64,000 nt of DNA from Candidatus Omnitrophota bacterium. GTDB taxonomy: Bacteria > Omnitrophota > Gorgyraeia > Zapsychrales > JBDRMG01. The position numbers and the translations under genes were made by a program. Below the pieces are notes generated by a model, which had not been told where the DNA came from, did not search any database, and saw nothing but the letters and a program-made list of their open reading frames with translations. This document shows positions 1-64,000 of this stretch, piece by piece (within the stretch, counting starts at the first letter, position 1; each line of letters begins with the position of its first letter). Location: positions 2,339 through 66,338 of the forward strand of contig JBDRMG010000065.1 in NCBI GenBank assembly GCA_043812495.1, given 5' to 3'.

Positions 1-3000
1 GCGCTAGGGGGTAAAATTCCAGGACACACCTTTAATGTCCTTCCGTTAGATAATGACAGCATCATAGCTATTGATTTCAAAAATCGGCAAATTAAAGTAA
101 TAGGCCCGAATAACCCCGTTGATTTTACTGATGATAGAATTACTTCCGGTGATGTTCTTATAGATACATCTCCTTATGATGATGTGATTTATGCTAGCGC
201 TTGGTACAACCGCGGTAATGCCCTTACTGAATTAGGCCGCTACGCAGAAGCCATTGCCTCCTATGACAGCGCCCTTATCTACAAGCCTGATGATGCCGGT
301 GCCTTGTACAACCGCGGTAATGCCCTTACTGACTTAGGCCGCGACGCAGAGGCCCTTGCCTCCTATGACAGGGCCATTACCTACAAGCCTGATGATGTCG
401 AGGCCTGGAATAACCGCGGCGTTGCCCTTTATTATTTAGGCCGCTACGCAGAGGCCATTGCCTCATATGACAGTGCCGTTACCCACAAGCCTGATGATGC
501 CATGGCCTGGAGTAACCGCGGCATTGCCCTTCATAACTTAGGCCGCTACCCAGAGGCTATTGCCTCATATGACAGTGCCGTTACCCACAAGCCTGATTAT
601 GCCATGGCCTGGAGTAATCGCGGCATTGCCCTTAATTACTTAGGCCGCTACCTAGAGTCCCTTGCCTCCTATGACAGCGCCATTACCTACAAGCCTGATT
701 ATGCCATGGCCTGGACCAATCGCGGCATTGCCCTTCATAACTTAGGCCGCTACCCAGAGGCTATTGCCTCATATGACAGCGCCCTTACCTACGAACCTGA
801 TTATGCCAGTGCCTGGAACAACCGCGATGTTGCTAATGACGCTGCGCTCAGATTGAATAAGGCACAAAATAACAATTTATTTAATATTGACTTCCGGCAG
901 TTATTGAGCTCGGCAGTGGTTGCCGGACTTGCCTTGGTTGCAATAAATAGCGGCTTTCAGCTTATCTCCGGAGCCGGATTTGGTTCAGAATTATTCCTGC
1001 CGGCTACTTTGTTTACCGCAGGCGTGGTATCCAAAAGTAGTCCTGAAGAATTGAAAGAGAAATTATTAGGCTTACTAGCCGAGATTAATGCCTCAGTAGA
1101 GAGCTTAAGGGAGTTAGCTGACAAAGGCCAGGCCAATGATTTAAGTTCGGTTTTAGAAGAGCTTAAGGAAAAGGCAGCCAAGGCAATCAGCGCAATTGTT
1201 AACGAAACAAATGGGAATGATAATCTTGATAGTGTATTAAGGCACGATTTAAGCAATGCTTTGAATTTGGCCGGCTATTTTGATGTCTTCTTAAGGAAAG
1301 AAACAGGCAAGCAGATTGCTTCTATAAAAAGCGCCCTGCCAATGATAGAAGAAGATTTAACAAAGGCTGAAGCTATTATTAGTAATCCAAGGTTATATTT
1401 AGCCAGAAAAACTGTTGTTTCAGAAAATGAGCTTACTAATAAAGCATTGAAGGTTATTAGCCTTACTGCTCTCACCTGGCTGGGGTTAAGCCTGGCCTCA
1501 AGCGTCTTTGCCGGCCAGGGTGGGGCCGCTCTTGAATATAATCCTTGGGTTGTAATTGGTTTGTCAGCCGGGCTTACCGGCTTAGGCCTATTAACAGCTC
1601 TTCCAAAGGTAAGGAATTTTGTGAAAGAACTTTTAAGAAAAATTACGCTATCCACAGTTTTGATAACTGTGTTATCTTCATTAGCAGCTTTTGGCATTTT
1701 ATATGCCATACCAGAAGGAGAGAATATTACAACGCCTCAATTTGAAGTGAAAAACACAGATGAAGCAATCGACAGCCTCTGTGCTTATGCTGTCAGGATG
1801 CATGAGGCAGGCTACGAGGGAGAACTAGGCGGAGTCGTGAAAAGAGAAGAAAACAGCCTTTCAATTTATGTTACGGACAAGGCAGAGCATTCAGTCAGCA
1901 CTCCTTTGCCGGAAGTTGATAATGAATTCATTTGGCACATTCATCCTGAGGCTGATTTAGGTAATATAGAGAATGCCGCAAGGAGCTTACAGGTTTCAAT
2001 AGAAGATTTAGACGGTTTGCTTCTAACCAGAGAGATTGACGGAAAGGCAGTTTCTCATAAGCAGAGCATAGTAATACTTTCTGCCGAAGACAGATATGCA
2101 GCTTCTTTGGTTAATGAGCCTGATAGCCTGGATATGATATTCAGGAATATGTTTTTAGAAGACGCAGAGTCATTCGGAGAGCTATTTACTTCACCCCTCT
2201 TACGTCAGGCGGCAAGGGATGTTAAATGGGTGGGTAATCCATTAGAAGACTTTATTGAAGAACATGCTTGTTCATGGCCATTGGCTGCCAATATAATCGG
2301 CATTAAGGCAAACGTATATTATCAGGAAGAGGGCAAGACAATCGAATATGATTATACGCTTGAGTTTAACAGGAATAATGAATTGCAGGAATTCAGAAAG
2401 GAATTTAACCTAAATCATCAACCGGTTAATCAAGGCAAGGCTCCAGCCAGTGTAATCTTGAACCTGATGTTTCTTGGGTTTGGCCTGGCAGCGGCAAAGG
2501 CAGGCTCGGCTAAAGCTGATGATGGCAAAGGGTTTGAATACATAGGTGAAGCAAGAGTAACGGGCGGAGCACAGTATAGCCCTGAAATATCTATGGCAAA
2601 GATAATGAAGGGCATGAGAATTGACGGGTTTGGTGAGATGCTTTTTATTCTTGTGTTAGGCGAATACAAAGCTACAAAATCATCATTTAAATTTATTAGG
2701 ATGATAACTGCGCAACGAGCTGACGAATTAGACACAGTGCCTGAGGATAGGTTCCATGCTCATATTGATTACAGAAAGAAATTAATAATGCCGAGAGAAT
2801 TATTTAGAGAATCCGGGATAAAATTTCAAGAGCAAGTTGTTTTCGTAAACGCTGGTTTTCCGGAAGGTGAATTACGCATTTATTCGAAAAGAGATTGGGA
2901 TAAATTGGTTGACTTAAAAGTAGTAACCTTAGCCGGTTTAGGCTTGGGAGTATTTTTATTAAACCAATTTGTTCCTTCGCTGACTAATCTTAATACCGGG

Positions 3001-6000
3001 GTAGCAGCCCAGGCAGATATGTTAACTGCGTTTATAGCACTGGGTATTTTAGCCTTAGCCGGTATTTGCGTTAAGCTTCTTGGTTACTTACGCGCCGGGC
3101 CGGTTGATTGGATTAAAAATATAGAACTTCCGCTTTTAACTGTTTGTGCCTTGGCATTTATAACCAGAGTCATTAATCTTAATTACAACGGCCCATTTAT
3201 TGATGAATCTTTCTATTCTGTAGCCAAAGATATAGGCAACGTCTTTTATATTACCGGCGAGGCTTATCTGTGGCCGGTTGTTTCCAATTTCGCTCATACA
3301 ATAGGCGGGGTGGTAGGGGCGCGCTTTGTAACGGCTTTATTTGGCACTTTGACAGCAGGGTTTGTCTATAAGGCCGCAGAAATTTTTGCAGTTAAATTTA
3401 ATGCTAAGGATAATAAGTACGTTGGTTGCTTAGCTGGTTTAATCTTTGCATTGTCTGCACCTGCATTGCTAACTAGCACTGTAGCAGGTTATGATGCCAT
3501 GGCCTTTATGCTCTATGCCTTTGGCTTCTGGCAATTGACTAAAGGACTGGAAACAAGCAGCAAAAAATCACTTTTAATTGCAGCGGCGGCATTGGCCATT
3601 TCTGCTGATACGAGGTATATGTTAATTGGCTTTTTACCCGTTGCAGTTATCTACGCTATTTATTCTAGCGTCTTCAACAAAAATAAATTAACCACATTAG
3701 CCTATTTCTTATTACCTTTAAGTATTTTAGCCGGAGGTTACGTATATCTAAATCATGAACATGTGTTTGCAGCCTTAAACCATGCCCGCAATTTAGGATT
3801 ATCATTAGCTAAGGCACAGACAATCAGCTATATATTGGCCAATATTCTTGTCAGGATTGCTCCAGTTATAGTGTTGGCCGGTATTGGCCTGGCAGTATAT
3901 TTAAACAAGGCAATCAGAGATAGATCTATAAGGCAGATAACAAATATTGCGTTCCTGGTTAGCGCAGCTGTAGTTATAGCCGCTTATCATATCTGTGCTG
4001 GCAATGATTTTACCTTGAATAGGAACTTAACAATGACTGTTATGTTTGGTTCTATCTTAGCCGGGTTAGGCTTAAATTATTTCATCAGCAATTTGAAGAG
4101 GGCGAAATACATAATTATAGGCCTGCTCTTATCAGTCTTACTTATCCAGGCGAAAACAGTCGTTAATAAAGACCAAGCCTGGCCGGATTGGAGACCGGTT
4201 GTTAGCAGCGTGCATGATTTAGATATACCAGCTTATTGTAATTGGCGTATTTGGTGTACGACGAATAATGGCGGAAATGTCTGGCAACTAAGGGCTGAAT
4301 TTGGCAAGAGGGTAGATGAAGCCTCTCCCTGGTATGCTGATAATCCCATGGATGTTTTAAAGCAGGCCTCAGGCAAACTTATTCCAGTAGTTGTTGGGCC
4401 AATACCAGGAACAGACCTTGATGTCGGAGATAAAATTTGTGGATATGTTGTAAGGCAAGTTGTTGTTATCCCTGGCTATTCGAAAATTTATATTCTTGAA
4501 TATCTATCTGTTTATGAGTCAGAACAGAGCGCTACGCAGCAATCACAGCCAATCACTCAGGTCACCACCAACACCACCTCCCCAGCCGAGAAGAAAGAAA
4601 CAGAAGGCACCAGCGTAGCTGCGGAGATTAGTCAACCCCACGTATACTTATTGCCCCACCTACATTTAGCGCCTTCCCAGAAGCGAGATGTATTGGACAA
4701 ATTAGAGCAATTAGAGAGAGCAATGGAACAATTTTCTACCCCTGCATCAGACTCTATCTTAATGTTTAAAGCAGACATTGAAAATATATTTGCCAGCAGC
4801 CGCGAGATACTTGCTCAATATAGCCGCGAGGCAGAAGCTATTAAACAAGTTGTCAATAATCCTGTTAACAAAATAAGACGCATCGGGGTAGAGGCTGATC
4901 AAGCATATGTTTATGATTTTCTGGAAGGCGCTCAATTTAAATTACACAATCTGGAAAGTATGATGCAGTGGGTGGGCTTTGAAGATTATAAACAAAAAGC
5001 CAAAGACCTTTTACTCGTTATTTATGGCCCTGTCTTTTATTTATACGTTACAGGATATGAGCCTATCGCATCAGATACTATAGAGATAATAGGGGTAGAA
5101 TCTAACGATTTAATGTTTAGTCATTCGGTAGTTTTTAGCTCATTGGTTAGGCATTACAATCAGGACCTGCCGCGTTCAGGAGCAATGCAGCCATTGCTAA
5201 ATTTGATCGAGAATATGTTGGGCGATAAAACGAAAATCCCTATGCAAAGCGAAATTGATAGTGCAATTTCTGCGGCGCGTAAAGACTCTACGCTTATAGC
5301 AAATTCACAGTTATGGTTAGTTCGAGACGTAAAAGGGTGTATAGAAGGTTTTATAGACATAGCAAATGAACGCGATGAGTTTGTTTTTTCAAAGATACAG
5401 GCTGATTCTACTAATATATTGATTGTGCGAGGGAGAGGGCATGAGTCAAAACTGCGGGAATTGTTTAAGGAAGGATTAATTGAGATAGATTCTCTCGATT
5501 CAGGGCCCTTGCATAAGGCAAATAATAAAGAATCCGGCTTTATCAATCCAGACAGCAGTCTGCAACTGAGCGAGAATCAATCTCAGCAGCCCTTCAAGCA
5601 GAGCTCACTACTACCTTTATTCTTACTCAGCCTTATCTCAGTAAGGCCAACGAGAAGACACCGCAGGAACTTTGCCGCAACCAGGGCAACTACAGGAGTC
5701 AGAAGAGAAGGTTACTTACGCGCCGGGCCGGTTAAGGGTTTGATTTTGAGCATCCTTTTTGCCGCAGCTTTATATATCTCGCCAGTTTTTTCCACCCCCG
5801 CATATTCAGATAATTCAGCAAACCAATCAGCTTACAGCGATACAGTCAAAGATGTGATTAAGAATATAAGAGACAGTTATTTTCCTTTTCCAAATAATGA
5901 TTCCATGGGGACAGTCAGGGAATTTGACGATTTAGACAATATCGCTTCCAACATAGATGCCTGGGCAGAGTTTATAAATTTCTGCACATGGATGTCTCAA

Positions 6001-9000
6001 AAAACAGAAGACGTGGAGGAAAAAGCCCTTTATGACTCCTTGGCCAGCGGAGTTATCAATTTCGCCATAGCTACACAAGATGAAAGAGGGGCTAATTTTA
6101 CGAGACGGCTGTTTATGCCGGCTTCGGCTTCCCAGCCTTATGATTTTAGAACAGGCTTTAATTCTAGCTTATGGTCTGCAATTGTCAACAATTACAGGCT
6201 TAATCCCAGAGAAAAGCTTTTAGAGCCTATGCAAAGTTTTACCCTTTGGCTTCTTGACCAACAGCAGACAGATACAGATACAGCTTATCAGGCAAGCTTA
6301 GGAGCGTTTAGCCGGGGAGATGTCTTTTATAATCCTGATAATCAATATGACCCTGAAGATGGGTATATTCCGCCCGCGGTCATAGATTCTCTTCATTATA
6401 CTGTTGTGGCTACCTCACGCGCTATGGGCTACATGGAGAATTATTACGGTATCATTCAATATACGGATACAGAGTTAGCCTTAGAAATCCAAGAGGCTAT
6501 CAAGCTGGCTAATAATTGGCTATTGACACAGTATCAGGACTATGGGATGTATGCCTTCTTTAATGTAGGCTGTGACCTCTACGGAAAGAACCTGCCTTTC
6601 GCTGGATTTCCGGATTTATTGTTAGAGTCTCAGGTCCTGCCTCTCTATGTATGGGATTATATAAGCTGGCTGGGAGTTGATTTGACTTCCTACAAGGGGG
6701 GCGTAGATTGGCTTATCGCCATATACGAGAAAGAGATAGAGTTTAACGCTAATAATATTAAAGGGTTTTCAAGAAATACATTTGGCGACCCTTCCCAGGA
6801 GAGCGTCGCTTCGCACAGCACTCTTATGGCAGCAGGGACGCTGGATTTATTAGGCGATAGCGCAGAGGCCTCATTTTACAGCAATGAAGTTAGCAAGTTA
6901 ATTACTGATGAGGGAGGAATAATATTTAGCGCAAGCAATGCCGGCAACCTGCCGTTTCCTTCCGACTATCATTATTCTTATGTCGTATCCGGCATCTGGT
7001 ATGTATATTCTGCCTTTGGCGTAAACGGCTTTAATCCTTTTGAGGTTGAGGATTCAATAATTACTCCTGAACAGCCGTTTATACTTCATCAAAATTATGC
7101 CAATCCGTTTGGAGGGGAAGGCACTACCATTGAGTATGAATTAAAGGAGCCTGTCAAAACAGTAGATATAGAAATCTTCAATATCCTGGGCCAGAAGGTT
7201 ATAGAATTCAGAGACTTGGAAAACGGGAAAGGAATTCACGAGATTAGATGGGATGGCAAGGACGGCAATGGAGAAGGCTCAGCCAGCGGTATTTACTTTT
7301 ACAGGTTAAAGGTTGACGGCCGCATAATAGAGTCAAAGAAGGCAATGTTGATTGGCGCAGCAGAAGATGATAATGCGCCGGTATACGGACAGGAAGAAAC
7401 TTCTCCAACCCTACCTCTTTTAGCTGGATTACTTCTGACTCCTGCGATTGTTACCAGAAGAAGAAAGACAGGCATTTTAAAGACTGCTGTTATGTTAGCC
7501 GGCCTTGGCTATGCCAAAGGCATTGGGTTTGTAAACGCCTTAGCAGAAATTATCCAGGCCAGATTCTTCCATAAACGAAGAGCCGCGCTGCGCAGGCTGG
7601 CTTCCAAGGCCGTCAGCAAAGGCGCTTTCGTGTATAACAAAATAGCTGAAAGGTTAAAGGAATTGCGGTCTCCTCGCTCTGTCGCTGCTGAAACAGAAAC
7701 AGCTCATTCCTCAGGTGAGGCTTTGACTTCATTGGCAGAAATCGAAAGAGCTATTCTTTCGGCTGAGGAAATCATCATTCAAGCTAAGAAACAAATAATA
7801 AAATGGGCGCTTGGCATGTCGATTCCTTTCCTATTTTTGCTTCAGGTATTACGCGCAGGTCTGACAAACGCGGACGCATATTATTTCTTCCCGACGAGAT
7901 ATATTTTAATTTTGGCTTCCCTGGCGGGACTTATCATGACGGCCGTGGGTGTTGCACGGCAAATCAGGAATTATAGAATTTTGCGTAGTCGCGAAAGGAT
8001 TGTCCGGGAATATAAAGGCATTATTGCGGAAAGCAAAAATTTACTTGCATCTCTTGAAAGAAACGGAGCGGGAGAAGGCGCCCAATCCGATGCCGACCAA
8101 ACTCTCCACGCCAACTTCATCACGCCAGAGATTATTGCGGTCATCGGGCTGATCCTTATGATTGCCGGAATTATGTATGCGCTGCGACTGTCAGGGACCT
8201 GTCCCGCTGGTTTTGCCAAAGGCAAAACTACCAGTGGGACAGGTCCCGAAGCCGCTATGAAGATAGCCTCGGGACCTGTCCCTGCTTTTCTGATTGTGAC
8301 GGGGATAACTTTGGCGGGGACGGGGATTTTAGCGAACAACAATCATCGCGACTTGCCGAGGACTTTCAAGAATTCAGCGGCAGGAAGGATGGGAATTTTA
8401 CCGAAATTTCCAAGGGACAACAGATGGCGGTCGCCGGATACGATACAATCAACCCCGCCTTCCCTGGCGGCATGGAGGAATTTATCATCCGAGGGGTCAG
8501 CTTTGACAATGGGATCCCTCCGGAGCGGTTCGACAAAGAACGCCTGGTCTTTGATTGTTTCCGCGATCTTCAGCACAGTGGCTTTTGGGATAATTTTCTC
8601 GAACTTGGGACGGTTGATCACTTCGACGAACTCATCAAAAATTCTGTCCGATAGGACCAGCGTAAATGTTTCCTGGGAGAGTTTATCGAGAATTTTGCCG
8701 CAATGGGAATACGGCTTCAGCAGGCCGGAAACAACAATGTTTGTGTCAACAACGGCCTTGAGCATATTGGTCTTGACGGTAGGCTTTTATTTCATCGTTA
8801 ATTTCTTTTTGAGAAACAAGATGTCTCCTAAGACGCTTGCGAATATCCTTAAAGATACCCTGCCATCTTTCGCGAAAGGTTTCGTTGTTAAGCTTGCGCG
8901 CCAATTTCAGCTTAAATCTCTTAGGCATGCGGTCAACGATTTTCTCGACCTCTTTTTCCGATATATTCATAGAATATTTAATCACGGTTTCTTCTCCTCC

Positions 9001-57000: not shown

Positions 57001-60000
57001 ACAAAAAATATTCCGTTCCAACCGTGCGTCGACTTTTCTATCAAGAAAATTTCACGGAAGTCGACATCCCGACTTCAAAAGATCAAAATCTCGCTGGAAA
57101 GAATTCTACCTAAAACTACTTCTCGCTATCCGTGGCTGGCGGAGAAGAATCAGTACTTCCCAGCGAGATTTTATCTAGAAAGGTCGGGGCTGGTGATCGG
57201 ATATTTTGCAGCGGCCCTGCTTATTGTCCTCATTCCTTTATTTTGCATTAAAGCGCTGGGAATAATCTTAACGGCCATGCCGTTGCTGTTGGTCGGCGGG
57301 GTTGAAGGCGAAGATTATCAGCCAATAGGCCAGGTAACCGCCCGCGCCAAAGCGCTTTCATTGATCTTCGGCGAACCTATTGAATTACTGCCGAATTTAC
57401 CGGAATACAAAGATCTTCCTGTTATCCCGCACACGGTATTCCCTGCAAACCAGGACATCACAACGGATATCAAGAAAGTCATTTTAGATCATCCTGACCT
57501 GTTTGCCGTGATCGCGGGTGTACGCAAAGCCGCCTTCATTGAAGGCTTAACTCTTACGCCTGAGCAGGAAAAAGACTTACGTCATATCTTAAGGATGCTG
57601 AACATCATGGTGCTGGCTTCCACTGATTTCATTATTCTTCCTCAAGGCCTCTACATCTATGAAGGCTACCAATTAACAGCCGAACTCTATAGGAATAATC
57701 CTTCTGACTTACGTCTTGGCTTTACCCAGGCCGGACTAAAACTACTTATCCTGCGAGATTTTGCCAGAGGTCCCGGCCATATCTTCTATGACTTAGCTGT
57801 CCAAGCATTAAATGAGCAAGATTTATCGAACATTTCATTTGTCAGAAATGTGATGGAAGTTAAGCAGGAAGCTTCTTCTAGAGAAGGCACGCTTAAAGAG
57901 TGTTATGTTCCCACCTTTGACCGGCCGGACACCTTGCACAGAGTATTAATATCCTTGAAGACACACAATAAGCTTTATGGCCATAATGTCGCTGCTGTTA
58001 TTCATGATGACTCTCGGGATAAGTCCAATGCCGAGGGCCGCAATTTTTATCAGGAGAACCAGGCCATCATCCGTGAAATGCGTACCGCCGGGTTAGATAT
58101 TATCTACATCGGCGTTGAGGATAAAACGACTAAAATAAAGAACATGGTAGACTATCTCTTCGATAAATTTAATCTGTTATTGACCCAAGGACAATTAGAT
58201 TCCTGTATCCAAGCCCAAGTCATCCGAGATGGCTCGATCGACCGGGCCCTGATAGAAAACGCAGTTGCGGCTGCCTTTGCCACCAATATCGCGGGGGTGC
58301 GCACATTCAATAATGCCCGAAGCCAGGGCGATACATTCGCCTCGATAGACGATGACGCCTTATTCCAGATCAGAGCCCATACAAGAGCAACCTGGGAGAG
58401 AATCACAGCCGGACGGGAAGAAAAAGTTTACGCGCTCGAAATATTACTTTATGGTGAATTGGCTGACCTTTGTGAAATAACCATAGAAAATCAAGAAGAT
58501 TTTCTTGGAGCATTACGTTTAATTCCCGGCCTTCCTTCGGAGAAACAGCTTGCGGCCAACGAAATCTTTGAGCGTTATTATGCCTATCCTGACGGCCTTA
58601 TTCTTGCTGCCGCCGGCCAGATTGCCGATAATCAAGATGGTAAATATGAAAACCGCCTCAGGTTTAATGATGAACTTCAGCAGGGTTTAGATCAAAAGTT
58701 AGTCGTAGTCGAAGATACCGGGGACACGTTACCGGACATTGAAGATACGGACTTTATCCTTGTGCCGGTCGACTTCTTCGGTGTTGCCAACCATCTTATG
58801 GAAACAGGCGTAACGGCTGAATCAGGCTCGCTGATGTCCAGGGATCTGCGCGGCATTGCCGGGATCCCGGCTGATCCGGCTAACATTCCTTATGGTAAAC
58901 CTATACGCGGTGTCTCGGGCCACTTTATCGGAGCTCGTGACGGCAGCGGCAGGACACACTTTATCGAAGCCATCCAGCGCTGGAAGAGAGTCAGCAGAGT
59001 CGATTCTCATGACTTTAGGAGAATGGTGCGTTTAGCCTATGCTGGGAAGATAGGGTTATTAACCAGATTCTCTATGGACCTAGGCAATGAATTCTGCTGC
59101 AATGTTCACGCCATAGACCAGCGTGGCATGGATGAAAACGGTATGTCTTTCGCTATTCCCACCGCTTCAGGCTGGCAGAGAAGAGAAGAGCCATACCTGG
59201 TACAGTTGATGAGATTCTTATTTGACGCCTGTAGCGTCTGGGCCACAGGCGGAGCCCATGAACGCGTTCCCGGCTTGCGCCGTCCAGCCATTGGTAAGCA
59301 GGCTCTCTGGGAATTTGTTACGTTAATCTCCTATGTAGACCTGCATCCGATCCTAGAAGCATTACATGAAAGTATTCCTCAGGGCAACTCAGCTGAAAGA
59401 ATCCAGGCCTTAGGCCAGGCCTATCTTGAACTGGCAAGAACCTATCAGATCCCCGCTGATCAGATTGACCGCTTAAGAAAAGAGCAGAGACTGATCTTAA
59501 AATGGGCCAATGAACTCTTTGCGCTTCTTCAGAACCCGAATATTAATATGACCGGCGATAACGAGAGAGAACTTCTTGAAATGGCTCAGGAGTTCTGTGA
59601 ACAATTTGGGCTGTCTCGCTATCGCATGACTGATGAAGGTGTCATTGTCAAAGAAATTCCTGTTTTAGAATCCGACCCTGTCTGGCAGAACGGCCGCTAT
59701 AAAGAAAAGATTACATGGAATGCCTCTGAAGAATTAGATCCTTCTATCGTGACAATGATGACGAATGATCACATAGAATATTATGCCGCTATGGAAGACG
59801 GAATAGTATTTGAAGGCTTGTTGAAGCGTACCCGCAGCATCATTATCGAGCAGATGATCTACGACGGCCTGCAGTACCTCTTATGGCCGGATATCTTAGA
59901 GGCCATGAAGAATACCGAAGGCATTGCGATGCCGGGAGAGGTGGTTGCTTCTTTAGATAACAGACTTTCGATGGAAAGACAAGAGACGTTAGAGTATTTA

Positions 60001-63000
60001 AGAGATTTTATGAATAATTGCGAGGTGGCAAGAAGCGCATCAGATTGGCATGATCATCATTTGCACGGCACATGGGATAAGATGATACGCGAAGATGATT
60101 ATCAAGCGATATGTGCTTCTTTTGAAGGAATAGAGAAAGGCAAAGATGTTTTAGTTGTTTTACTTAGCGAGCTCGTGGTCACAAATGTTATTTCTCCTAT
60201 TCGCATTCTTACTGATGAGCACGAAATATTTGCGGTGTTAAGAAAGATCGTTACAGGTTCTCAGCTAAGTGATTCAGAAAGATTAATTAAAGAAGAATTT
60301 CTTAGAATCCTTCTTTTGGAAATCAGGAATCTGCTTGGAATATTATCCCCGCCTCGTGCGGCTGAAGATGGTGAAAACAAGAAACTGATAGAGAAACTAA
60401 ACGCAATAATTAATCAAAAAGGTTCTGAAGGCAACTCTCCTTCAAAATCTCTCGACAAAATCGAACTTGTTAAGCGCAACATTGACTTCACGACTCGGCT
60501 TATTGAAGACGGACAGGTTCCGGATGTGATCGGCACGGTCGGCAACGCGGCCTCTCAAGGATTCTGGCAGACGATTATGGATATATTTGCAAGAACCATC
60601 GGAGCCAAGCGCGGCATCGCCTTAAAAGAAGATCTTCCGACCAATCAAGCATTCGGTATTTTGTACATGTGGCATAATTTGCGGGATATCATTAAGAAGG
60701 AAGGCAATCCCTTAAGCGCGTTGTTTGCTTTTGTGTTTGGCTCAGGTTCACGCTCCACGCCTTTTACCGAAACCGACTGCGCCCAAAAACCGGCCATTCA
60801 AGGTCCCGTTAAATTAGGAGAGCGCCATGTCTCAGCCGTCGAGCTTGCCATGATGTATTTCATCGGTGTGCAGAAGCATCTTTGGCGCTCCGGATTCAGA
60901 GGAATCGTTATCAAATGGGGTGATGAGATCCAAATACCCACCCTGGATTTATCTCAGGATAATCCGTTATTCCAAAATGCTGATATCGTGCGTTTTGTTT
61001 CTTTGCGAAAAATGAATGATGATGAATCCAAGAATAAAGATTGGGTCGGAGTCGACAGCGAAGGCAAAGTGACGGCCTTTATCCCCAGAAGGTCATTAAA
61101 AGAGATGGAGCTTTTAGCGGATCAAGGTTTATTGCAGCGCCGTGAAGACGGCCTCTACGGCGGCATCAACTTGGGAAGCGTCGCCATATCTTATGATTTA
61201 TTAGAAGTCTTATTAGATGAATTCAAGAATGATGTTTTAGACCCCAATGTAAAAAGAGGCGACCGCCCTGATTTAGATCCGCAGTTCTTTACAGCCGTCT
61301 GTATTGCAGCCATCGCTGATGCCGAAGCCCGGGAAACAGCATGGCAGGAAGCCATCACGACTGTCAAGGCCATGAAAGAATTCAATGACAAGATGCCGGG
61401 GGTCTTAGCCAGAATCCGCCATGCCTTAGATAACCTTGAGCAAGCCCATAGCCGTCCGATTAAGATGGTGGCCATGGATTTCTTGGATCAATACTGGGCG
61501 GATATCGGTCAGCACGCGAAGATGTTTGACTTCTTTACCTTAATTAATCAAGACGGCGCTGAAGCTGAAATCAGCCGCTCGCTGGCCGGCATCGAGGCAC
61601 AACGCGATGATAGCGGCAATATCCTCATCGGCAACTGCCAGATCAGCCCTGATGTGCAAGTGACCAATTCCATTCTCATTGACGTCCGATTGACCGGTCA
61701 AGGGCATGTCAAAAATAGCGTGTTGATCGGCACCGAAACCATGAATATAGAAGCTGTTAATGCCTTTGATTTCCAGAGCATAGTTCCGGCGATAACATTA
61801 GAAAGCAGAGCCGGCACATATAAAGTTGTTTCGGATGAGCCTGTTTATGCCCGCGAAAAAATGCGTCTCACCACTTTGTTTATGCCCTCCTATGGCATCA
61901 AGCTTATGCAGGTGCACGAAGACGATGACTTGCGCAAAGATGAGATTTACGGCAAAACGAAAGAAGGCACAGATCTAGAGCCCATTCATGGTAATGCCGT
62001 TACCTTTGTTCAAGCCCATGAGGATATGGGGCAATTAAGTTATGAAGAATTGCAGGAACGCAGAGCAAGAAGAATAGAAGAGGTGAAGGCTGTTATAACG
62101 AGTTCGAGCCGTTCTTCAGGCTCCTTTGTTGGGTCCTCTGCGTCGGAGGGTGTTGCGATAGATATCATTTCAGACCATGGCGAAATTGTCAGGATTTTAA
62201 CGGAGGCAAGTCAAGAAAGCGGATTCCCACTGGAAGGCGTCACGATTTTCAATTTTGATGAACATGATGACCGCGGCGTTGTCCCCGAAGTATTTGATCA
62301 CTGGACGAGATTTGATGGATGCTGGGCTAGCGTCGCCGAAGCAAGAAAGCTGGCTAAAGTTGTTGTGCATTGTTCTCCCAGAGTTGTTTTTAATCCAGAT
62401 TTATTCAAACAAATATTAGGACAAAAAATTCAAACACCCGTTTGGATAACCGTATGCTACGACTTCTTCTCTTATCAAATGCATGATGAACACGGCTTCC
62501 CAATGGGACAGGTCTTACGACATTTAGAAAAGAAAAGTATTAAGGCTGAAATTGAGAAGATAATTAAACTCTGCGAACATCTCAATGTCACCAGAGTTGT
62601 ACTTGCCTATTCCCCCGGTTATTTGTCAGAACGGGCAGACGCCGATTATATTAAATTCATTGATGAACAGTTTAAATTAGCCTTTGGTAAATTCGATAGT
62701 CATGCAAGAAGCGCCCTTTCTAAAAAAGACAACCCGACGGCTCTTCCTTGCAATATCCCGCTGATTGTGAGCGCCAACATCCGCACCGGCCAAGACGGTT
62801 ACACATGGGGAAGATTGGCCAAGGAATCCGAAATTCTTCGGATGTTAGGTATTACGCCTCAAGACATCGGTATATCCGATGATGAACCGGTCGGTGAGCT
62901 TTGGCTGGCTTCTGATGACCGGACATATCCTTCCCAGGTGCAATTACCCGATGGTACGACTACAACACTTCCCGAGCTCCTTGAAAAAGAAGGGAAGCGT

Positions 63001-64000
63001 ATCTTAGGAGACAAGCACTACGCCATCCATGGTCCCTACATGGCCACCATCATGAAGCTCATCGACGCCGGTCAATCCTTATCCGTTCAGGTTCACCCGG
63101 CCATGGGGCATCCCACGCGTCCGGCCAAGCCGGAGATGTGGATGGTCGGTCCGGCCGGCGCAAAATTATTCCTTGGATTTAACCAAGATGTCTCTTCCGA
63201 AATCTTAAGGGAGGCTTATGAAAACGGTACTCTCGAAGATTTGCTTTATCAAATGAGCCCGAACCCGGGAGACCTTGTTGTGGTCAGCGGCGCCTTAACC
63301 CATGCCATAAGAGCCGGCACAACCATCTGGGAATGGTCACATGCGCCAACCGGAGAAGAAATCGCCAAAGGCGATATCAAGAAAGCCACCGTGGCGCCTT
63401 GGGACCGAACAGACGGCAAAAAGCCGCGACAGGGCAAGGAAGATTTAGAAGGCACCATCGAAGTCCTGGATGACGCGACCGACAGAGCGGGTATTCCGGC
63501 CTATCAGAAGATAGATTTGAGCAAGGTCTACAGCCAAAGAAAAACAAAATATTCCGACAATAGCGGTAACAAAATTGACAGGCTCTTCACGACGACAGAG
63601 GTTGTTGTGGATGAGATAACCGTCACTGCTGCTTTGGATCAAGACACCAACGGCAACGGCTATCCGATCTTTATTCTCGAAGGTTCCCTTGAAATCCGCG
63701 CTCCGGACAATACATTAGTTGCGACGTTAAAGAAAAATGACTGCGTTCTTATCCCCGCCTATTTAGAAAAACATATCTTCATCAATAAATCCTCTAAGCC
63801 TTCCAAGATTGTCAAGTGGTATGCGCCCATAGGTCCTTCAGCTGTCTTTTCTCCTGCGATTAATGAATGTCTTGATATGAGTTCATCTGATTTCAAAAAT
63901 GAATTATTGAAGAAACAAATGATAGGTTGGGGAGAGTTATTTCTTGGAATTGCTTTCATTGCCTGCTTGATATGGGCACCTTCTTTTGAAAATGGAACTA
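1..64000 (+). CDS. Single uninterrupted giant ORF (frame +1), partial at both window edges; over 21,333 codons inside the window; mosaic multi-domain, multi-transmembrane giant protein
   Basis: Frame 1 translated codon by codon over every 60-nt line of the window with no TAA/TAG/TGA found. Translation is protein-like over most of its length, and every recognisable domain (TPR, LysM, FHA, M23, GlgA-like, PMI-like and others) is in this same frame. All other frames are fragmented into ORFs of 60-232 aa, as in the supplied track. Confidence 0.85.
199..900 (+). repeat. Array of 7 tandem TPR repeats (34 aa / 102 nt period), repeated at both DNA and protein level
   Basis: Seven consecutive units of the form AWYNRGNALTELGRYAEAIASYDSALIYKPDDAG, starting at 199, 301, 403, 505, 607, 709 and 811. 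Canonical TPR positions (W-NRG-AL--LGRY-EAI-SYD-A----P) are kept in each. Confidence 0.9.
2905..4160 (+). other. Polytopic membrane domain of about 11-12 helices; possibly a GT-C fold glycosyltransferase (PMT/ArnT-like)
   Basis: A run of hydrophobic 20-25 aa segments (LKVVTLAGLGLGVFLL, MLTAFIALGILALAGICV, ELPLLTVCALAFI, ..., YIIIGLLLSVLLIQA). An acidic DE motif (NGPFIDESFYSV) sits in the first predicted extracytoplasmic loop, as in PMT_2/ArnT-type enzymes. A soluble domain follows at 4200-4560. Confidence 0.35.
7084..7356 (+). other. Type IX secretion C-terminal sorting domain-like module (Por_Secre_tail-like), placed inside the ORF rather than at a C-terminus
   Basis: LHQNYANPFGGEGTTIEYELKEPVKTVDIEIFNILGQKVIEFRDLENGKGIHEIRWDGKDGNGEGSASGIYFYRLKVDGRIIESKKAMLI matches the consensus QNYPNPFNP.T.I.Y.L.....V.L.IYD..G..V......aG.h...WDG.d..G..vaSGvYfYrL.......kKm.L of T9SS type A CTDs. 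Confidence 0.7.
7396..7460 (+). other. Tripartite sorting-signal-like motif (SPTLP - hydrophobic helix - TRRRK) directly after the T9SS CTD-like module
   Basis: SPTLPLLAGLLLTPAIVTRRRKTG: a short motif, a hydrophobic span and a basic cluster, the architecture of PEP-CTERM/IPTL-CTERM-type signals. The assignment to a specific family is uncertain. Confidence 0.3.
8193..8284 (+). repeat. Palindromic multi-hairpin repeat element A, copy 1, inserted in frame (encodes SGTCPAGFAKGKTTSGTGPEAAMKIASGPVPA)
   Basis: Contains gggacctgtccc, ttttgccaaaggcaaaa, gggacaggtccc and gggacctgtccc inverted repeats. The 3-prime 49 nt are identical to copy 2 at 13878-13968. Confidence 0.8.
8343..8765 (-). CDS. vapC: PIN-domain toxin (VapC-like, TIGR00305-type PIN family), 140 aa, nested antisense inside the giant ORF
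   Basis: MLKAVVDTNIVVSGLL...GKILDKL....LVLSDRI.DEF.EVINRPKF.......KIAE.....AFFVEP....PIV.DP.DDKFLHAARE.GVDCIVSGDRHLLSLG....IPIL.AAEFLK fits the PIN consensus, with the conserved acidic residues (D6, E44, D95-like, SGD near the C-terminus) in place. Composition is protein-like, not S/L-rich. Confidence 0.85.
   Translation of the reverse strand: MLKAVVDTNIVVSGLLKPYSHCGKILDKLSQETFTLVLSDRIFDEFVEVINRPKFEKIIPKATVLKIAETIKDQAFFVEPLRRDPIVKADPSDDKFLHAAREGGVDCIVSGDRHLLSLGNFGKIPILPAAEFLKVLGKSR
8746..8985 (-). CDS. Putative antitoxin partner of the PIN toxin (79 aa, K/R/E-rich), GTG start, overlaps the toxin start by 20 nt
   Basis: Sits immediately upstream of the PIN gene on the same strand with the start/stop overlap typical of type II TA operons. 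A GGAGG Shine-Dalgarno lies 10 nt upstream of the GTG, and a sigma70-like promoter sits just upstream. Confidence 0.55.
   Translation of the reverse strand: MIKYSMNISEKEVEKIVDRMPKRFKLKLARKLNNETFRERWQGIFKDIRKRLRRHLVSQKEINDEIKAYRQDQYAQGRC
9010..9038 (-). promoter_or_regulatory. Sigma70-like promoter for the nested minus-strand TA operon: TTGACA-N17-TATACT, then a GGAGG SD and GTG start
   Basis: Minus-strand reading of 9038..8983 gives TTGACAggccaagagaaagcgacTATACTtaatttatcGGAGGagaagaaaccGTG. The -35 is a perfect consensus and the -10 matches 5 of 6. Confidence 0.5.
9160..9257 (+). repeat. Repeat element B, copy 1 (TM helix - FKNR - QRQGPPxGEARPPAKxRISPAL); the 65-nt core is highly conserved
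   Basis: Core ccagggcccgcctaaaggcgaggcacgcccgccggcgaaaacgagaatttcccccgccct. It is nearly identical to 13093-13157 and similar to 12451-12515, and partly to 10093-10150. It contains a cgcc-taaa-ggcg hairpin and a cgccggcg palindrome. Confidence 0.75.
9781..9957 (+). other. LysM domain. Its C-terminal 71 nt are an exact duplicate of 9408-9478, which is a partial LysM copy.
   Basis: YVIKSGDTLTEIIERELGVSAYRPVVNGQMPYEIIAENNGITDPNLIYPQDTIQM has the LysM pattern (Y.V..GDTL..IA....-....I...N.I.....I..GQ.L.IP). 9408-9478 is identical to 9885-9955 at every nucleotide. Confidence 0.7.
10040..10150 (+). repeat. Repeat element B, copy 2 (degenerate 3-prime half)
   Basis: ttaaaaaaccgcgcggcggttaaggacatgcttgaaacatccctgcagcgccagggcccgcc, then diverged sequence. 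Confidence 0.6.
10315..10509 (+). other. Second LysM-like module
   Basis: ITAVNVESGDTWGHITLDYYKTQGQGVGQLWGPDGKAYTLWSEVYGPGSDYTDMDHIRTGETIDL: an SGDTW...I..YY start and an I..G..I.L end, with a longer internal loop. Confidence 0.45.
11040..11460 (+). repeat. Acidic tandem repeats, about 3.5 units of 41-47 aa (E/S/T/A/Q-rich)
   Basis: Units start at 11061, 11184 and 11325: SSAEAAVVAGSQEASQTVEPADTQAVVSEGTEV.SEGSDNG. The period is 123-141 nt and the DNA is nearly identical between units. Confidence 0.85.
12400..12515 (+). repeat. Repeat element B, copy 3
   Basis: ttcaaaaaccgcgcggcggcgaaggaaatacttgagacatcggttcagcgccagggcccgcctaaaggcgaggtaaatccgccggcgggaataaagatctcccccgccct. Confidence 0.75.
13055..13157 (+). 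repeat. Repeat element B, copy 4
   Basis: ttcaaaaaccgtaaagtgcttgatgcatccatcccgcgccagggcccgcctatcggcgaggcacgcccgccggcgaaagcgagaatttcccccgccct. Confidence 0.75.
13878..13968 (+). repeat. Palindromic multi-hairpin repeat element A, copy 2, in frame; first two hairpins are flipped relative to copy 1
   Basis: agggacaggtccc...tagttttgcctttggcaaaatta...gggacaggtcccgaagccgctatgaagatagcctcgggacctgtccctg. The central hairpin is the exact reverse complement of the copy-1 hairpin (loop aaa vs ttt; ct vs ag). Confidence 0.8.
14284..14500 (+). other. FHA (forkhead-associated) phosphopeptide-binding domain
   Basis: SRHLAVTITPEGLAQLTDLGSENGTFIHARAEEV matches the FHA core (R.H..i.......i.DLgS.NGTfvN...i). 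Confidence 0.6.
16024..16116 (+). other. Internal C-terminal-sorting-signal-like motif no.1 (PCLTGTIIE - helix - QRRRSSR)
   Basis: FPCLTGTIIEMAAVVLLAGLGVWAAQRRRSSR: a motif, a hydrophobic span and a basic tail. Confidence 0.5.
17797..17895 (+). other. Internal C-terminal-sorting-signal-like motif no.2 (LPGVTGTIID - helix - QRKW)
   Basis: GLILPGVTGTIIDVLVVALLLAGLGVLAVQRKWF. It is 85 percent nucleotide-identical to motif no.3. Confidence 0.55.
17925..18075 (+). repeat. Array of degenerate 7-nt tandem repeats with dyad symmetry (agcgttt/agcgtag/agcgtat ... acgctat/ctcctat x3/ccgctat x4 ...) around a 9-bp-stem hairpin
   Basis: The left arm (agcgtNN)n is the reverse complement of the right arm (NNacgct)n. 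The hairpin agcgtatag(17948-17956)/ctatacgct(17973-17981) sits in the middle. Four perfect ccgctat units lie at 18004-18031. The region is in frame, and the unit length is not a multiple of 3. Confidence 0.85.
18835..18945 (+). other. Internal C-terminal-sorting-signal-like motif no.3 (LPGLTGTIIE - helix - QKRGWSRR)
   Basis: GGLILPGLTGTIIEVLVVALLLAGLGVLAQKRGWSRR. Confidence 0.55.
18967..19016 (+). repeat. Repeat element C, copy 1: palindrome gtcgggatcccgac, a 24-nt loop, then gtcggga; in frame (GIPTSTISF)
   Basis: gtcgggatcccgacttcaacaatttcatttaagagaacgtcgggattccg. Confidence 0.7.
21421..21525 (+). other. Internal C-terminal-sorting-signal-like motif no.4 (LPGVTGTLIE - helix - YRNWF)
   Basis: CLGLILPGVTGTLIEVLALLAIAGLGIIWIYRNWF. 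Confidence 0.5.
21608..21684 (+). repeat. Repeat element C, copy 2, including a 38-nt near-perfect palindrome (21610-21647); in frame (GTPTSTISY)
   Basis: gtcccgacgctccgaccataggtcggaggtcgggactccgacttccacaatttcatatggggaaacgtcggag. Confidence 0.7.
21840..22160 (-). CDS. Nested antisense small protein of 106 aa, charged and coiled-coil-like, function unknown (the track version of 119 aa starts at a TTG inside the -35 box)
   Basis: MKIKGNKTTKPLKEFSKDREFAVVLEKIHTDMRAIAEGQSILRDKLDATMGMVARNAEDITTISLRSSFMKEELTKINGKLAKMEEDIRTIKEDFGKRLTHLEAVK is K/E/D/R-rich and S/L-poor, as real proteins are. The opposing frame +1 peptide here is S/L/I-rich, which looks like passenger sequence. A sigma70-like promoter lies directly upstream. 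Confidence 0.5.
   Translation of the reverse strand: MKIKGNKTTKPLKEFSKDREFAVVLEKIHTDMRAIAEGQSILRDKLDATMGMVARNAEDITTISLRSSFMKEELTKINGKLAKMEEDIRTIKEDFGKRLTHLEAVK
22171..22199 (-). promoter_or_regulatory. Sigma70-like promoter TTGACA-N17-TAAAAT for the nested minus-strand small gene; near-leaderless
   Basis: Minus strand: TTGACAatatttttgtgctggatTAAAATaagcgccatcATG. The -35 is perfect and the -10 matches 5 of 6. About 10 nt separate the -10 from the ATG. Confidence 0.45.
22507..22541 (+). repeat. Repeat element C, copy 3 (subfamily with atcaaaatctcg)
   Basis: ggcatcccgacttccacgaatcaaaatctcggcag. Confidence 0.55.
27420..27800 (+). other. Peptidase M23 (LytM/lysostaphin-like) metallopeptidase domain
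   Basis: EWEHKGIDLVVETNMFIYVPKEFDGAKV...HYGNVIDITKV...YTLRIAHVGTVWPDLGDIVKTGQVLALTDVITGWAHQSMLPGSKMLEHIHVEILKNGKNVDPEEHM has the H.G.D ... G....HLHFE...nG..vdP layout of M23 peptidases. Confidence 0.7.
44797..45126 (+). repeat. Conserved ~110-aa repeat domain R, copy 1 (unknown function)
   Basis: HAKPRLGFTEDDVVAEAKDIIHSEKIHTFAILTEETPYVKAVLDYYEQNNQLEKAKRLRDRLSGHMVREGPMTTAFGANLDGYILIATNDNPNPASVTIHENNNGTHADK. The same domain recurs at 47968-48300 and 56395-56735 with mostly synonymous differences. Confidence 0.8.
45154..46760 (+). other. glgA: Glycogen/starch synthase (GlgA, GT5-like) catalytic module embedded in the giant ORF
   Basis: KLNIVAVSPEVAPFSKSGGLGDVIQGLPKSLA is the GlgA N-terminal ADP-glucose-binding motif (V.SE..PF.KTGGLaDV.gaLP.aL). 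Further GlgA-type motifs: LHTHDWQTSL, GILNGLDYQEFDPQTD, LISMVGRITVQKGLALL, IVLAGKPD and [34 protein letters not shown]. Confidence 0.85.
47968..48300 (+). repeat. Repeat domain R, copy 2
   Basis: KAKPRLGFTQDDVVTEARGIIDSEKINTFAILTKETPYVKAVLDYYERTNQQEKANRLRARLSGHMVREGPMTTAFGANLGGYTLIATNDNPNPSSVTIHENNNGTHADNS. Confidence 0.8.
48640..49380 (+). other. Sugar-1-phosphate nucleotidyltransferase-like module (GlgC / ADP-glucose pyrophosphorylase-like)
   Basis: FFVGLHGGGSSSRNPKFTQIGK is a G-rich NTP-transferase loop. WGVAAVDDFGHIIEFKEKP resembles GlgC YGVM.vDe.GrIieF.EKP. It sits 1.9 kb downstream of the GlgA-like module. Confidence 0.5.
56395..56735 (+). repeat. Repeat domain R, copy 3
   Basis: HAKPRPGYTEEDVVKEATEIITSGRINNQAAWAILTEDVDWIKAVLDYYEITHQTEKAERLRARLSGRMVREGPMTTAFGANLNGYILIATNDNPNPAAVLAHENHGKSHSEN. 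Confidence 0.8.
57058..57098 (+). repeat. Repeat element C, copy 4 (subfamily with atcaaaatctcg)
   Basis: gaagtcgacatcccgacttcaaaagatcaaaatctcgctgg. Confidence 0.55.
57895..58600 (+). other. GT2-like (GT-A fold) glycosyltransferase module
   Basis: ECYVPTFDRPDTLHRVLISLKTH ... NVAAVIHDDSRDKS follows the GT2 pattern (iP.yN....L...L.Sl..Q, then a D.D/DDgS.D motif). Confidence 0.4.
60780..61900 (+). other. Nucleotidyltransferase-like region ending in left-handed beta-helix hexapeptide repeats
   Basis: ILIGNC QISPDV QVTNSI LIDVRL TGQGHV KNSVLI GTE shows 6-residue periodicity, typical of the C-terminal LbH domains of sugar-nucleotide pyrophosphorylases. The upstream part (WGDEIQIP...GGINLGS) is nucleotidyltransferase/fucokinase-like. 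Confidence 0.35.
62890..63400 (+). other. Type I phosphomannose isomerase (ManA-like cupin) module
   Basis: GELWLASDD..., then LIDAGQSLSVQVHP (the PMI zinc-binding QVHP motif), then PGDLVVVSGALTHAIRAGTTIWEWS (PMI pG.aifipAGt.HAy..G...E motif). Confidence 0.65.

Follow-up and report, generated by a model that had tools for sequence, protein, structure and literature searches.

The 64,000-nt stretch of contig JBDRMG010000065.1 analysed here, referred to as the window, is filled by one reading frame, and all features of the window described below lie with it on the forward strand. This single stop-free frame (1..63999) contains no TAA, TAG or TGA in 21,333 codons and is open at both window ends. 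An initial annotation, made from the letters alone, had claimed a stop-free frame that reaches neither end of its gene, and our count confirmed both points. It had also described six other frames as broken; only five exist, and these are indeed broken, with 1,143, 1,529, 1,340, 846 and 927 stops and with longest open runs of 144-247 codons. The probability of observing no stop was about 10^-445 with uniform codons, as in the (61/64)^21333 estimate of that annotation, 10^-525 with the base composition of the window, and 10^-517 with the stop rate of the other frames; chance, which the annotation had rejected, does not account for the frame. Stop-codon reassignment was considered and is irrelevant, since none of the three stop codons occurs in frame 1.

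Coding signals were observed along the whole frame. In each 3-4 kb block of frame 1, the purine fraction at codon position 1 was 0.61-0.68, the guanine fraction at that position (G1) was 0.30-0.38, and the period-3 signal-to-noise ratio was 14-36. Furthermore, the ratio of nonsynonymous to synonymous substitution rates (dN/dS) was 0.22-0.27 among three copies of a connector module inside the open reading frame (ORF), and 0.29-0.38 for copies of a helix-linker and of a LysM domain. These internal paralogues differ chiefly at synonymous sites, and the frame is real coding sequence under purifying selection. The catalytic motifs of the glycogen synthase, the M23 domain and the phosphomannose isomerase (PMI) described below are intact. 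Shine-Dalgarno-like motifs combined with an in-frame start were not enriched over the whole window (34 in frame 1 versus 51 in frame 2), promoter-like and terminator-like motifs stood at the shuffle level in nt 1-20,000, and no tRNA, tmRNA or Rfam family was found on either strand of the window.

The G+C content at third codon positions (GC3) per 500 codons varied from 0.33 to 0.58, with a standard deviation of 0.055 against a binomial expectation of 0.022. Low values (0.33-0.38) were observed at amino acid residues (aa) 501-1500, 3501-4000, 6501-7000 and 15501-16000, and values of 0.50-0.58 elsewhere; this patchiness could reflect cassettes of differing age or origin. The preferred synonymous codons were identical in all three thirds of the window, which is evidence against a chimera of different organisms. 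Self-BLASTP detected few internal repeats, namely a TPR array, helix-linker families, a short acidic repeat and three modules of ~120 aa. Hence, the collapse of repeats, about which the initial annotation had expressed concern, is unlikely to have produced an artefact.

An imperfect heptanucleotide tandem was noticed within the ORF at 17973-18051 (CTATCTC three times, then CTATCCG four times, and so on; 10.4 copies with 86% matches), which encodes 'LSPISYLLSAIRYPLSAVCYLLSAP'. A weaker tandem of the heptanucleotide type is present at 22263-22308. Because the period is not a multiple of 3, the gain or loss of one unit would cause a frameshift and truncate the giant protein. The tandem could be a phase-variation site, or a spot where assemblies or polishing break such ORFs.

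The product of frame 1 is protein-like and carries recognisable domains, as the initial annotation had noted; these, among them TPR, LysM, FHA, glycogen synthase and PMI, are sparse. A Pfam/HMMER search, which that annotation had suggested as a check, recognised about 10 distinct domain types in the window; only TPR is repeated among them, and this locally. Most of the chain showed no match in Pfam, NCBIfam or PDB sequences, and when the whole product was searched in five pieces against PDB sequences, only TPR proteins, glycogen/starch synthases and PMI were matched. The first ~9,300 aa contain envelope-type domains, that is, an Ig domain of the type IX secretion system (T9SS) type, LysM, M23 and a GT-C-like block, along with soluble segments that lie between signal-peptide-like and stop-transfer-like helices, and the last ~8,000 aa contain sugar-nucleotide and glycan enzymes.

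Among the enzymes of the C-terminal part, an ADP-glucose-type glycogen/starch synthase (GT5 + GT1) was found at 45160..46671 (aa 15054-15557). It matched Glyco_transf_5 (PF08323) at 7.6e-65, Glycos_transf_1 (PF00534) at 2e-20 and TIGR02095 with 416.5 bits against a cut-off of 328.45. Starch and glycogen synthases in the PDB were matched at 1e-58 to 1e-34, and the motifs KSGGL, RITVQKG and EPCGL are present. The next enzyme block, cassette A (48319..50598, aa 16107-16866), resembles sugar-1-phosphate nucleotidyltransferases and fucose pyrophosphorylases (Fucose_pyrophosphorylase, 8e-10; NTP_transferase, 3.9e-5; weak GlgC), and is 46-53% identical to duplicated cassettes in two related loci, L002 and L007. 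A weak GT-A core resembling mannosylglycerate synthase lies at 51826..52086 (aa 17276-17362), with IDAD at aa 17277 and a weak match to the HpnB glycosyltransferase. This is followed by cassette C (52741..56367, aa 17581-18789), a folded unit of ~1,100 aa with a predicted GT75/RGP-like GT-A core and DDDAP at aa 18084, and by its distant paralogue cassette C' (57328..59988, aa 19110-19996), which is 22-33% identical to many proteins of the cassette-C family. A type I PMI catalytic domain with a cupin was located at 62785..63813 (aa 20929-21271). PMI_typeI_cat scored 32.5 bits against a cut-off of 22, the zinc motif QVHP is present, matches to manA and in the PDB were obtained, and Cupin_2 was weak. 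The domain content of the window points to glycan and sugar-nucleotide synthesis at least as much as to degradation.

A module of ~120 aa, which we call the connector, occurs in three copies in this part of the chain. Copy 1 is at 44746..45147 (aa 14916-15049), copy 2 at 47953..48318 (aa 15985-16106) and copy 3 at 56329..56754 (aa 18777-18918); copy 2 is 80% identical to copy 1, and copy 3 is 60-63% identical to copies 1 and 2. The motifs KPR.G.T..DVV, YYE, VR.GPM.TA[FY]GAN, LIATNDNP and HE.N...H..N..AE are nearly invariant, and the module is conserved in 6 further loci. Two of the three copies in the window precede an enzyme: the glycogen synthase (GlgA) begins 5 residues past copy 1, and cassette A begins directly past copy 2. 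In relatives and database fragments, an enzyme domain likewise begins 3-13 residues past the connector, and may be an NTP_transferase, GDPD, cassette C or a GalE-like epimerase. Connectors are 58-85% identical within a genome versus 24-47% between genomes, which suggests lineage-specific cassette expansion or concerted evolution. When a set of 5.8 billion proteins was searched with a single connector sequence and with a 16-sequence profile, one match was obtained, a 172-aa Tara Oceans fragment (P0001; station 137, mesopelagic). This fragment is orthologous to connector copy 2 and the start of cassette A (51% over 170 aa), indicating that relatives occur in the open ocean. The same protein set seems to lack giant ORFs, as relatives exist in metagenome-assembled genomes (MAGs), and its negatives are no evidence of novelty. 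The connector might be a new domain that sets the 'grammar' of giant proteins, either as an Asn-Pro self-cleaving site or as an adaptor or carrier, comparable to the carrier domains of PKS/NRPS, coupling carbohydrate enzymes into a membrane-bound glycan assembly line; we regard this proposal as doubtful.

Relatives were then sought with the alignment of the connector copies, which was scanned against 185,579 species with one genome each, and in addition against metagenomes. The genome scan gave five loci and the metagenome scan gave three more (L006, L007 and L008); the contig of the window itself was recovered neither from the GTDB species genomes nor from the JGI metagenomes. L001 and L002 lie on one contig, CAWHFJ010000013.1, of the Ca. 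Omnitrophota MAG MFD04780.bin.2.175. L003 belongs to Ca. Zapsychrus exili (Omnitrophota), where the match is confined to the connector with 43% identity, and L004 and L005 are weaker relatives in MAGs labelled Planctomycetales. Long open frames surround the connector in seven of the eight loci: the entire fetched locus (8.6-20.4 kb) is free of stops in L002, L004, L005 and L007, L001, L003 and L006 are open for 2,680-4,927 codons, and L008, a 1.3-kb fragment, has no long open frame. In the L004 stop-free ORF (contig CAZOSW010000044.1), a weak Hint (intein-like) match to PF05203 was seen at ~5878-5994, about 725 aa past the connector (E 1.3e-4, 22.5 bits against a cut-off of 32.1); if real, it bears on processing.

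The window and the ORF of MFD04780.bin.2.175 share more than the connector. Window aa 13,769-18,921 aligned with that ORF at 42-58% identity in blocks of 400-1,350 aa. Both have a polytopic membrane block, the connector, cassette A and cassette C, in an order that is only partly conserved. The MAG ORF and L007 (contig Ga0210019_1000129) show the same arrangement of a connector followed by an enzyme and are stop-free over 20 kb. The MAG ORF differs from the window in that cassette A occurs twice and cassette C at least three times, together with GDPD and NTP-transferase cassettes, each preceded by a connector. The apparent end of the L001 ORF at nt 14785 is a frameshift (L001 14779-16164), since cassette C goes on in the following ORF, which uses a different frame and matches an earlier copy. 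Accordingly, the giant gene of this MAG extends beyond its called end, and the break is due either to an indel error or to a genuine shift of frame.

When 1.84 billion cluster representatives were searched exhaustively with HMMER for relatives of cassette C, no more than 66 clusters were obtained, of which 32 had E < 1e-30. A large share of the relatives are fragments, and some are Met-initiated proteins of about 1,040-1,940 aa. AlphaFold2 with a 55-sequence multiple sequence alignment (MSA) and a 1,200-aa query gave a predicted local distance difference test score (pLDDT) of 92 and a predicted template modelling score (pTM) of 0.90. A Foldseek search of this model against the PDB returned nothing significant, and its list was dominated by GT-A enzymes. 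Model comparison assigned cassette C a GT-A fold nearest RGP/UAM, with a DxD motif; the folds closest to the core were those of GT75/RGP (UDP-arabinopyranose mutase, PDB 8cid) and MtdL (PDB 7xpu). Unlike these proteins, to which it is only 9-13% identical, cassette C matches no Pfam family including the RGP model, its profile finds no PDB sequence, and its core is embedded in a multi-domain unit of ~1,100 aa whose other domains lack an identified counterpart. The model suggests that cassette C folds around a GT75/RGP-like nucleotide-sugar domain.

In the homologues, the neighbours of cassette C within the chain are nearly always sugar-nucleotide domains (GT1, NTP_transferase, epimerase, GDP-mannose dehydratase, PGM/PMM and TreT). 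Over cassette C itself, the window copy matched no Pfam family, and its homologues matched sugar-nucleotide enzymes only, in two or fewer members. One homologue, P0002, was called as a 1,938-aa gene on contig JBGGHG010000450.1 of the NCBI MAG GCA_041643115.1 and contains GDPD, GDP-glucose-phosphorylase (GDPGP1) and cassette C behind an N-terminus resembling a Sec-type signal peptide. Its identity to the window cassette was 55%, and 50% by BLASTP over 1,235 aligned aa. A Glyco_transf_5 gene of 1,658 aa with a hydrophobic N-terminus is situated nearby, separated from P0002 by a ParE/Phd toxin-antitoxin pair, and these genes fall within L009 866-12388. As P0002 was called as a separate gene, homologous cassettes also exist as stand-alone genes.

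Membrane segments were counted as 19-mers with a Kyte-Doolittle value of at least 1.7, a crude measure by which a few hits may be buried helices of soluble domains. This gave ~71 hydrophobic helices, close to the 'about 60' of the initial annotation; its statement that they are spread along the product did not hold, as they are clustered: aa 1-8,400 contain 56, aa 8,401-13,450 contain none, and the remaining 15 lie beyond. The product alternates hydrophobic helices with soluble blocks. A polytopic membrane block at 2905..4164 (aa 969-1388; transmembrane (TM) helices 6-12) has weak GT-C (PMT_2) similarity. A conserved polytopic membrane block at 41305..44526 (aa 13769-14842; TM helices 58-63) is common to the giant ORF of the Omnitrophota MAG, with 42-58% identity to L002 aa 79-1332. 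Two TM helices (68 and 69; aa 18955-18973 and 19072-19090) flank a 98-aa basic loop at 56863..57270, with K/R on the loop side, and aa 18955-19090 are predicted to form a hairpin tether joining soluble enzyme blocks. Both inspected gaps between C-terminal blocks hold two predicted helices, the other pair being aa 15619-15637 and 15932-15950; the C-terminal blocks should therefore share one side of the membrane. A global topology derived from hydropathy and the positive-inside rule was set aside as unreliable owing to parity conflicts, for example at aa 5370-5930 and between helices 71 and 69.

The N-terminal part begins with a TPR array of about 6 x 34 aa at 178..870 (aa 60-290; TPR_1 E 3e-52), seen in the DNA as a 102-nt tandem period (6.1 copies, 87% matches); its PDB matches are TPR proteins and the TPR domain of OGT. 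Within the ORF, a unit at 5716..7491 resembles a complete exported protein, consisting of a basic stretch with a signal-peptide-like helix (aa 1906-1931), a soluble domain, an Ig domain, a hydrophobic segment and RRRK. The Ig domain (aa 2366-2446) resembles the T9SS type A sorting domain (TIGR04183, 37.5 bits against a cut-off of 23; also FlgD_ig and CHU_C in Pfam). It is internal and not C-terminal, with about 18,900 codons following in frame. A LysM peptidoglycan-binding domain was found at 9790..9951 (aa 3264-3317; 25.3 bits against a cut-off of 20.9), and a second LysM-like copy at aa ~3130-3160 (internal repeat 3137-3193/3296-3353). An FHA domain core is at 14359..14466 (aa 4787-4822; 23.9 bits against a cut-off of 20.7; weak FhaB/FipA). 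An acidic low-complexity repeat was observed at 11122-11383 (aa ~3688-3819; 141-nt period, 1.9 copies, 88% matches), which reads 'AEGTE..SEGSDNGSSAEAEVVAG.QE.SQTVEP.D' and sits in a helix-free segment of ~470 aa. Its dN/dS of about 0.8 suggests a recent duplication under little constraint.

Helix-linker families recur over aa 2,700-7,200. The region 15994..21525 contains four linker copies (aa 5332-5368, 5925-5965, 6270-6312 and 7130-7175) with the motif G-L-I-L-P-G-[VL]-T-G-T-I-I-E-V-L, a TM helix and a basic cluster, and each copy closes a soluble segment; K/R was on the C-terminal side of the helix in all four. We considered whether these LPG[VL]TG-helix-basic linkers, and two elements that resemble them, are C-terminal sorting signals (LPXTG, PEP-CTERM, GPS-CTERM and others), but rejected this, as all scored below cut-off, the best scores of the four linkers being 11-17 bits against 20-30; judged by sequence, the linkers recall such signals in layout only. 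The N-terminal half looks like a chain of exported units, each with a signal-like helix, sometimes AxA, a soluble segment, and a hydrophobic helix with a basic cluster. One exported-looking segment, aa 6460-7140 (19378-21420), begins after a signal-peptidase-like site AQAQAQ (aa 6460) and includes HETTH (aa 6562), the sole HExxH motif of the window. From this motif, the segment may be a zincin-type metalloprotease, one without Pfam support.

The helix-free stretch of 5,050 aa (25201..40350, aa 8401-13450) contains an M23 metallopeptidase-like domain at 27445..27789 (aa 9149-9263) and otherwise gave no Pfam, PDB or NCBIfam match. The zinc motifs HxxxD (HKGID, aa 9149) and HxH (HIH, aa 9249) of the M23 domain are present. 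For aa 12001-13200, a word-indexed search of 5.8e9 proteins found no homologue, in a database that seems to lack giant ORFs. No glycosyl hydrolase domain was found in the window with Pfam, the only hint being a very weak Cellulase/GH5-like match (E 0.12, aa 11844-11892). In the surrounding aa ~11844-11990 (35530-35970), the motifs NEP (aa 11856) and GEIG (aa 11975) occur with the spacing of GH5 enzymes, and the segment is a possible clan-A glycoside hydrolase. Between aa ~10800 and 13450 (32400-40350), many Tyr/Asp-rich beta-strand-like motifs were seen by eye, for example 'RRYGLSLESKAFLMDGRLYYDQYKG', and Pfam gave no match at E <= 1 there. The region is reminiscent of RHS/YD repeats and of the ~1,500-aa antiparallel beta-helix 'tubule' predicted in Archaeovorins by West-Roberts et al. 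2023 (10.1101/2023.11.21.568195).

The window was compared with giant proteins as described in the published accounts. Seymour et al. 2023 (PMC10066038) reported ORFs > 20 kb in most Omnitrophota genomes and a 39,678-aa protein with 42 TM helices in V. archaeovorus LiM, the peptides of which were 3-fold higher in attached cells. West-Roberts et al. described proteins of up to 85,804 aa, termed 'large' at 10,000 aa or more and 'giant' at 30,000 aa or more, and defined 'Archaeovorins' by GT5, GT1, TPR, peptidase and sugar-metabolism domains, many TM helices and usually SecA_DEAD (10.1101/2023.11.21.568195). Nielsen and Lui 2026 listed 3,650 proteins of at least 10 kAA, up to 147,155 aa, and described a 'multi-enzyme metabolic' class; in their 916 long proteins, PF08323 and PF00534 were the foremost families of a module for 'sugar metabolism' (10.64898/2026.06.07.730766).

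The window contains an uninterrupted ORF well above 20 kb and 10,000 aa, and it has the numerous TM helices, GT5 + GT1, TPR, a peptidase (M23, slightly below cut-off) and sugar-metabolism enzymes of Archaeovorins. As far as the published description goes, it resembles the type protein of V. archaeovorus LiM in being a long single ORF that is mostly unannotated and poorly conserved, and also in that it has none of the dockerin/EF-hand and thrombospondin type 3 (TSP3) repeats of the dockerin-type giant proteins, which were looked for with Pfam. Like the multi-enzyme class of Nielsen and Lui, it has many Pfam families, none of which dominates, and is membrane-anchored; it is sequence-unique, as are 80% of their clusters (singletons; 10.64898/2026.06.07.730766). 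Its helix density of ~1/300 aa overall, and 1/150 in the first 8,400 aa, is above the average of ~2% of residues that they give, a comparison that is indicative only because the methods differ. Modular megasynthases, the polyketide synthases and nonribosomal peptide synthetases, offer an analogy only: there too, one long chain of cassettes with a small recurring border domain is subject to duplication and shuffling. Unlike them, the window has no carrier-protein, condensation or ketosynthase domain and no relationship to them in sequence or fold, and its product is membrane-threaded and carbohydrate-active.

The initial annotation had likened the frame to the giant multi-TM genes of Omnitrophota; indeed, among the 185,579 species genomes scanned, its closest relatives are giant stop-free ORFs in two Omnitrophota MAGs, and the domain content matches. 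From these findings, we consider it likely that the 21,333 or more codons of the window come from the interior of a single, genuine giant gene of the multi-enzyme, membrane-anchored 'Archaeovorin'-like class, from an Omnitrophota-like host of the Planctomycetes-Verrucomicrobia-Chlamydiae (PVC) group.

As to function, we tentatively favour a protein that would be a self-contained factory for an envelope glycan or 'coat'. Activated sugars would be produced and consumed by the C-terminal cassettes on the cytoplasmic side, the GT-C-like block and the conserved polytopic block would work within the membrane, and the N-terminal loops with LysM, M23 and Ig domains would be exposed on the outside, binding and cutting peptidoglycan. 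As an adaptor shared by all cassettes, the connector would tether or organise the individual enzymes, and through its repeated sequence it would be a recombination substrate for the duplication and shuffling of cassettes. A cytoplasmic location of the enzyme blocks is proposed because the substrates of ADP-glucose-type glycogen synthase, of nucleotidyltransferases and of PMI are cytoplasmic.

Several observations weigh against the assignment of the gene or against this function. The host taxon rests on relatives ~50% identical, and the window has no marker gene. No external homologue backs the continuity of the first ~13,700 aa, a weak negative since the database apparently lacks giant ORFs. 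In the window, no SecA family match at E <= 0.01 and no C39/S8 peptidase, HEAT, methyltransferase or NUDIX domain was found with Pfam, each of which may lie elsewhere in the gene. Several domain calls are slightly below curated cut-offs: PMT_2 (E 2.5e-5, 25.0 bits against 26.1), Peptidase_M23 (E 4.6e-6, 27.2 bits against 28.7) and MGS_GT (E 5e-4). For the connector, nothing better than E 0.04 was obtained with each member against Pfam, nor better than E 0.45 with the profile against PDB sequences, and an AlphaFold2 model from a 4-sequence MSA (pLDDT 43) was rejected as unusable for fold assignment. The topology signals conflict and partly contradict the cytoplasmic placement of the enzymes, as the charges around helices 68 and 69, read by the positive-inside rule, place the large enzyme blocks outside. 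Furthermore, 4 of the 9 inspected Met-initiated cassette-C homologues (P0002, P0003, P0012 and P0017) start with a sequence resembling a Sec-type signal peptide.

The last two points support a published proposal in which most soluble blocks, the 'metabolic' enzymes included, would be extracytoplasmic. During attachment or predation, they would attack a host or prey cell at its envelope, or even in its interior, and would not serve to build glycans of the producing cell. The exported-type LysM, M23 and T9SS-type Ig domains of the window agree with it, and so does the enrichment of V. archaeovorus giant-protein peptides in attached cells mentioned above. West-Roberts et al. predict most domains to be extracellular, but call some predicted localisations 'highly unlikely' (10.1101/2023.11.21.568195). 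Against such a surface weapon, the last helix (aa 21307) has a charge bias opposite to that of helices 68 and 69, and 5 of the 9 stand-alone cassette-C homologues lack a signal peptide. The substrate requirement of the cassette enzymes also speaks against it, as does the presence of an FHA domain, since FHA domains are typically cytoplasmic. We regard this proposal as possible but rather improbable for the window.

A polyprotein is compatible with either of these functions. The ORF would be translated whole, or in long pieces, and then cut at the connectors, for example by Asn-Pro autocleavage in TNDNP, and/or at elements resembling signal-peptidase sites or sorting signals. The connector indeed recurs at cassette borders with invariant polar residues (T-N-D-N-P; H-E-x-N-x-x-x-H), but neither Pfam nor PDB sequences gave a match between it and a peptidase or self-cleaving family, and the Asn-Pro idea is an analogy (FlhB/YscU NPTH). 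Internal units are laid out as complete exported proteins (basic stretch, signal-like helix, AxA, passenger, anchor and basic tail), and the T9SS-type sorting domain, normally C-terminal, is internal here, whereas the sorting-signal models score only below their cut-offs. Homologous cassettes elsewhere are separate genes of 1,000-1,900 aa. Cleavage by C39/S8 domains was raised as a possibility by West-Roberts et al. (10.1101/2023.11.21.568195), but besides M23 and the one HExxH motif no protease domain was found in the window. Such processing seems unlikely to us.

An assembly or polishing artefact or a chimera, with genes or organisms joined in frame or stops removed, is highly improbable. 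Giant ORFs from metagenomes are prone to errors, a frameshift interrupts the related ORF of the MAG, GC3 varies beyond the binomial expectation and the N-terminal 13,700 aa have no external support. However, errors break ORFs and do not yield a stop-free run of 64 kb, the three thirds of the window share their synonymous-codon preferences, there are few repeats to collapse, independent assemblies hold homologous blocks in long stop-free frames, and the helix-linker families tie aa 2,700-7,200 together.

The genuine giant gene that we favour is a new and very divergent example of a phenomenon already described. Giant bacterial genes of 10,000 to 147,000 codons are well documented in Omnitrophota, and the existence of the gene in the window is therefore unsurprising. 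The connector module and the GT75-like unit of 1,100 aa look new, as neither is mentioned in the available portions of the published giant-protein accounts. If both details hold up, they would provide handles on how such proteins are built, threaded and possibly processed, and on their function. Furthermore, cytoplasm-type sugar-nucleotide enzymes and envelope-type domains are combined in one chain, so that the long-standing topology paradox of these proteins becomes testable on defined segments.

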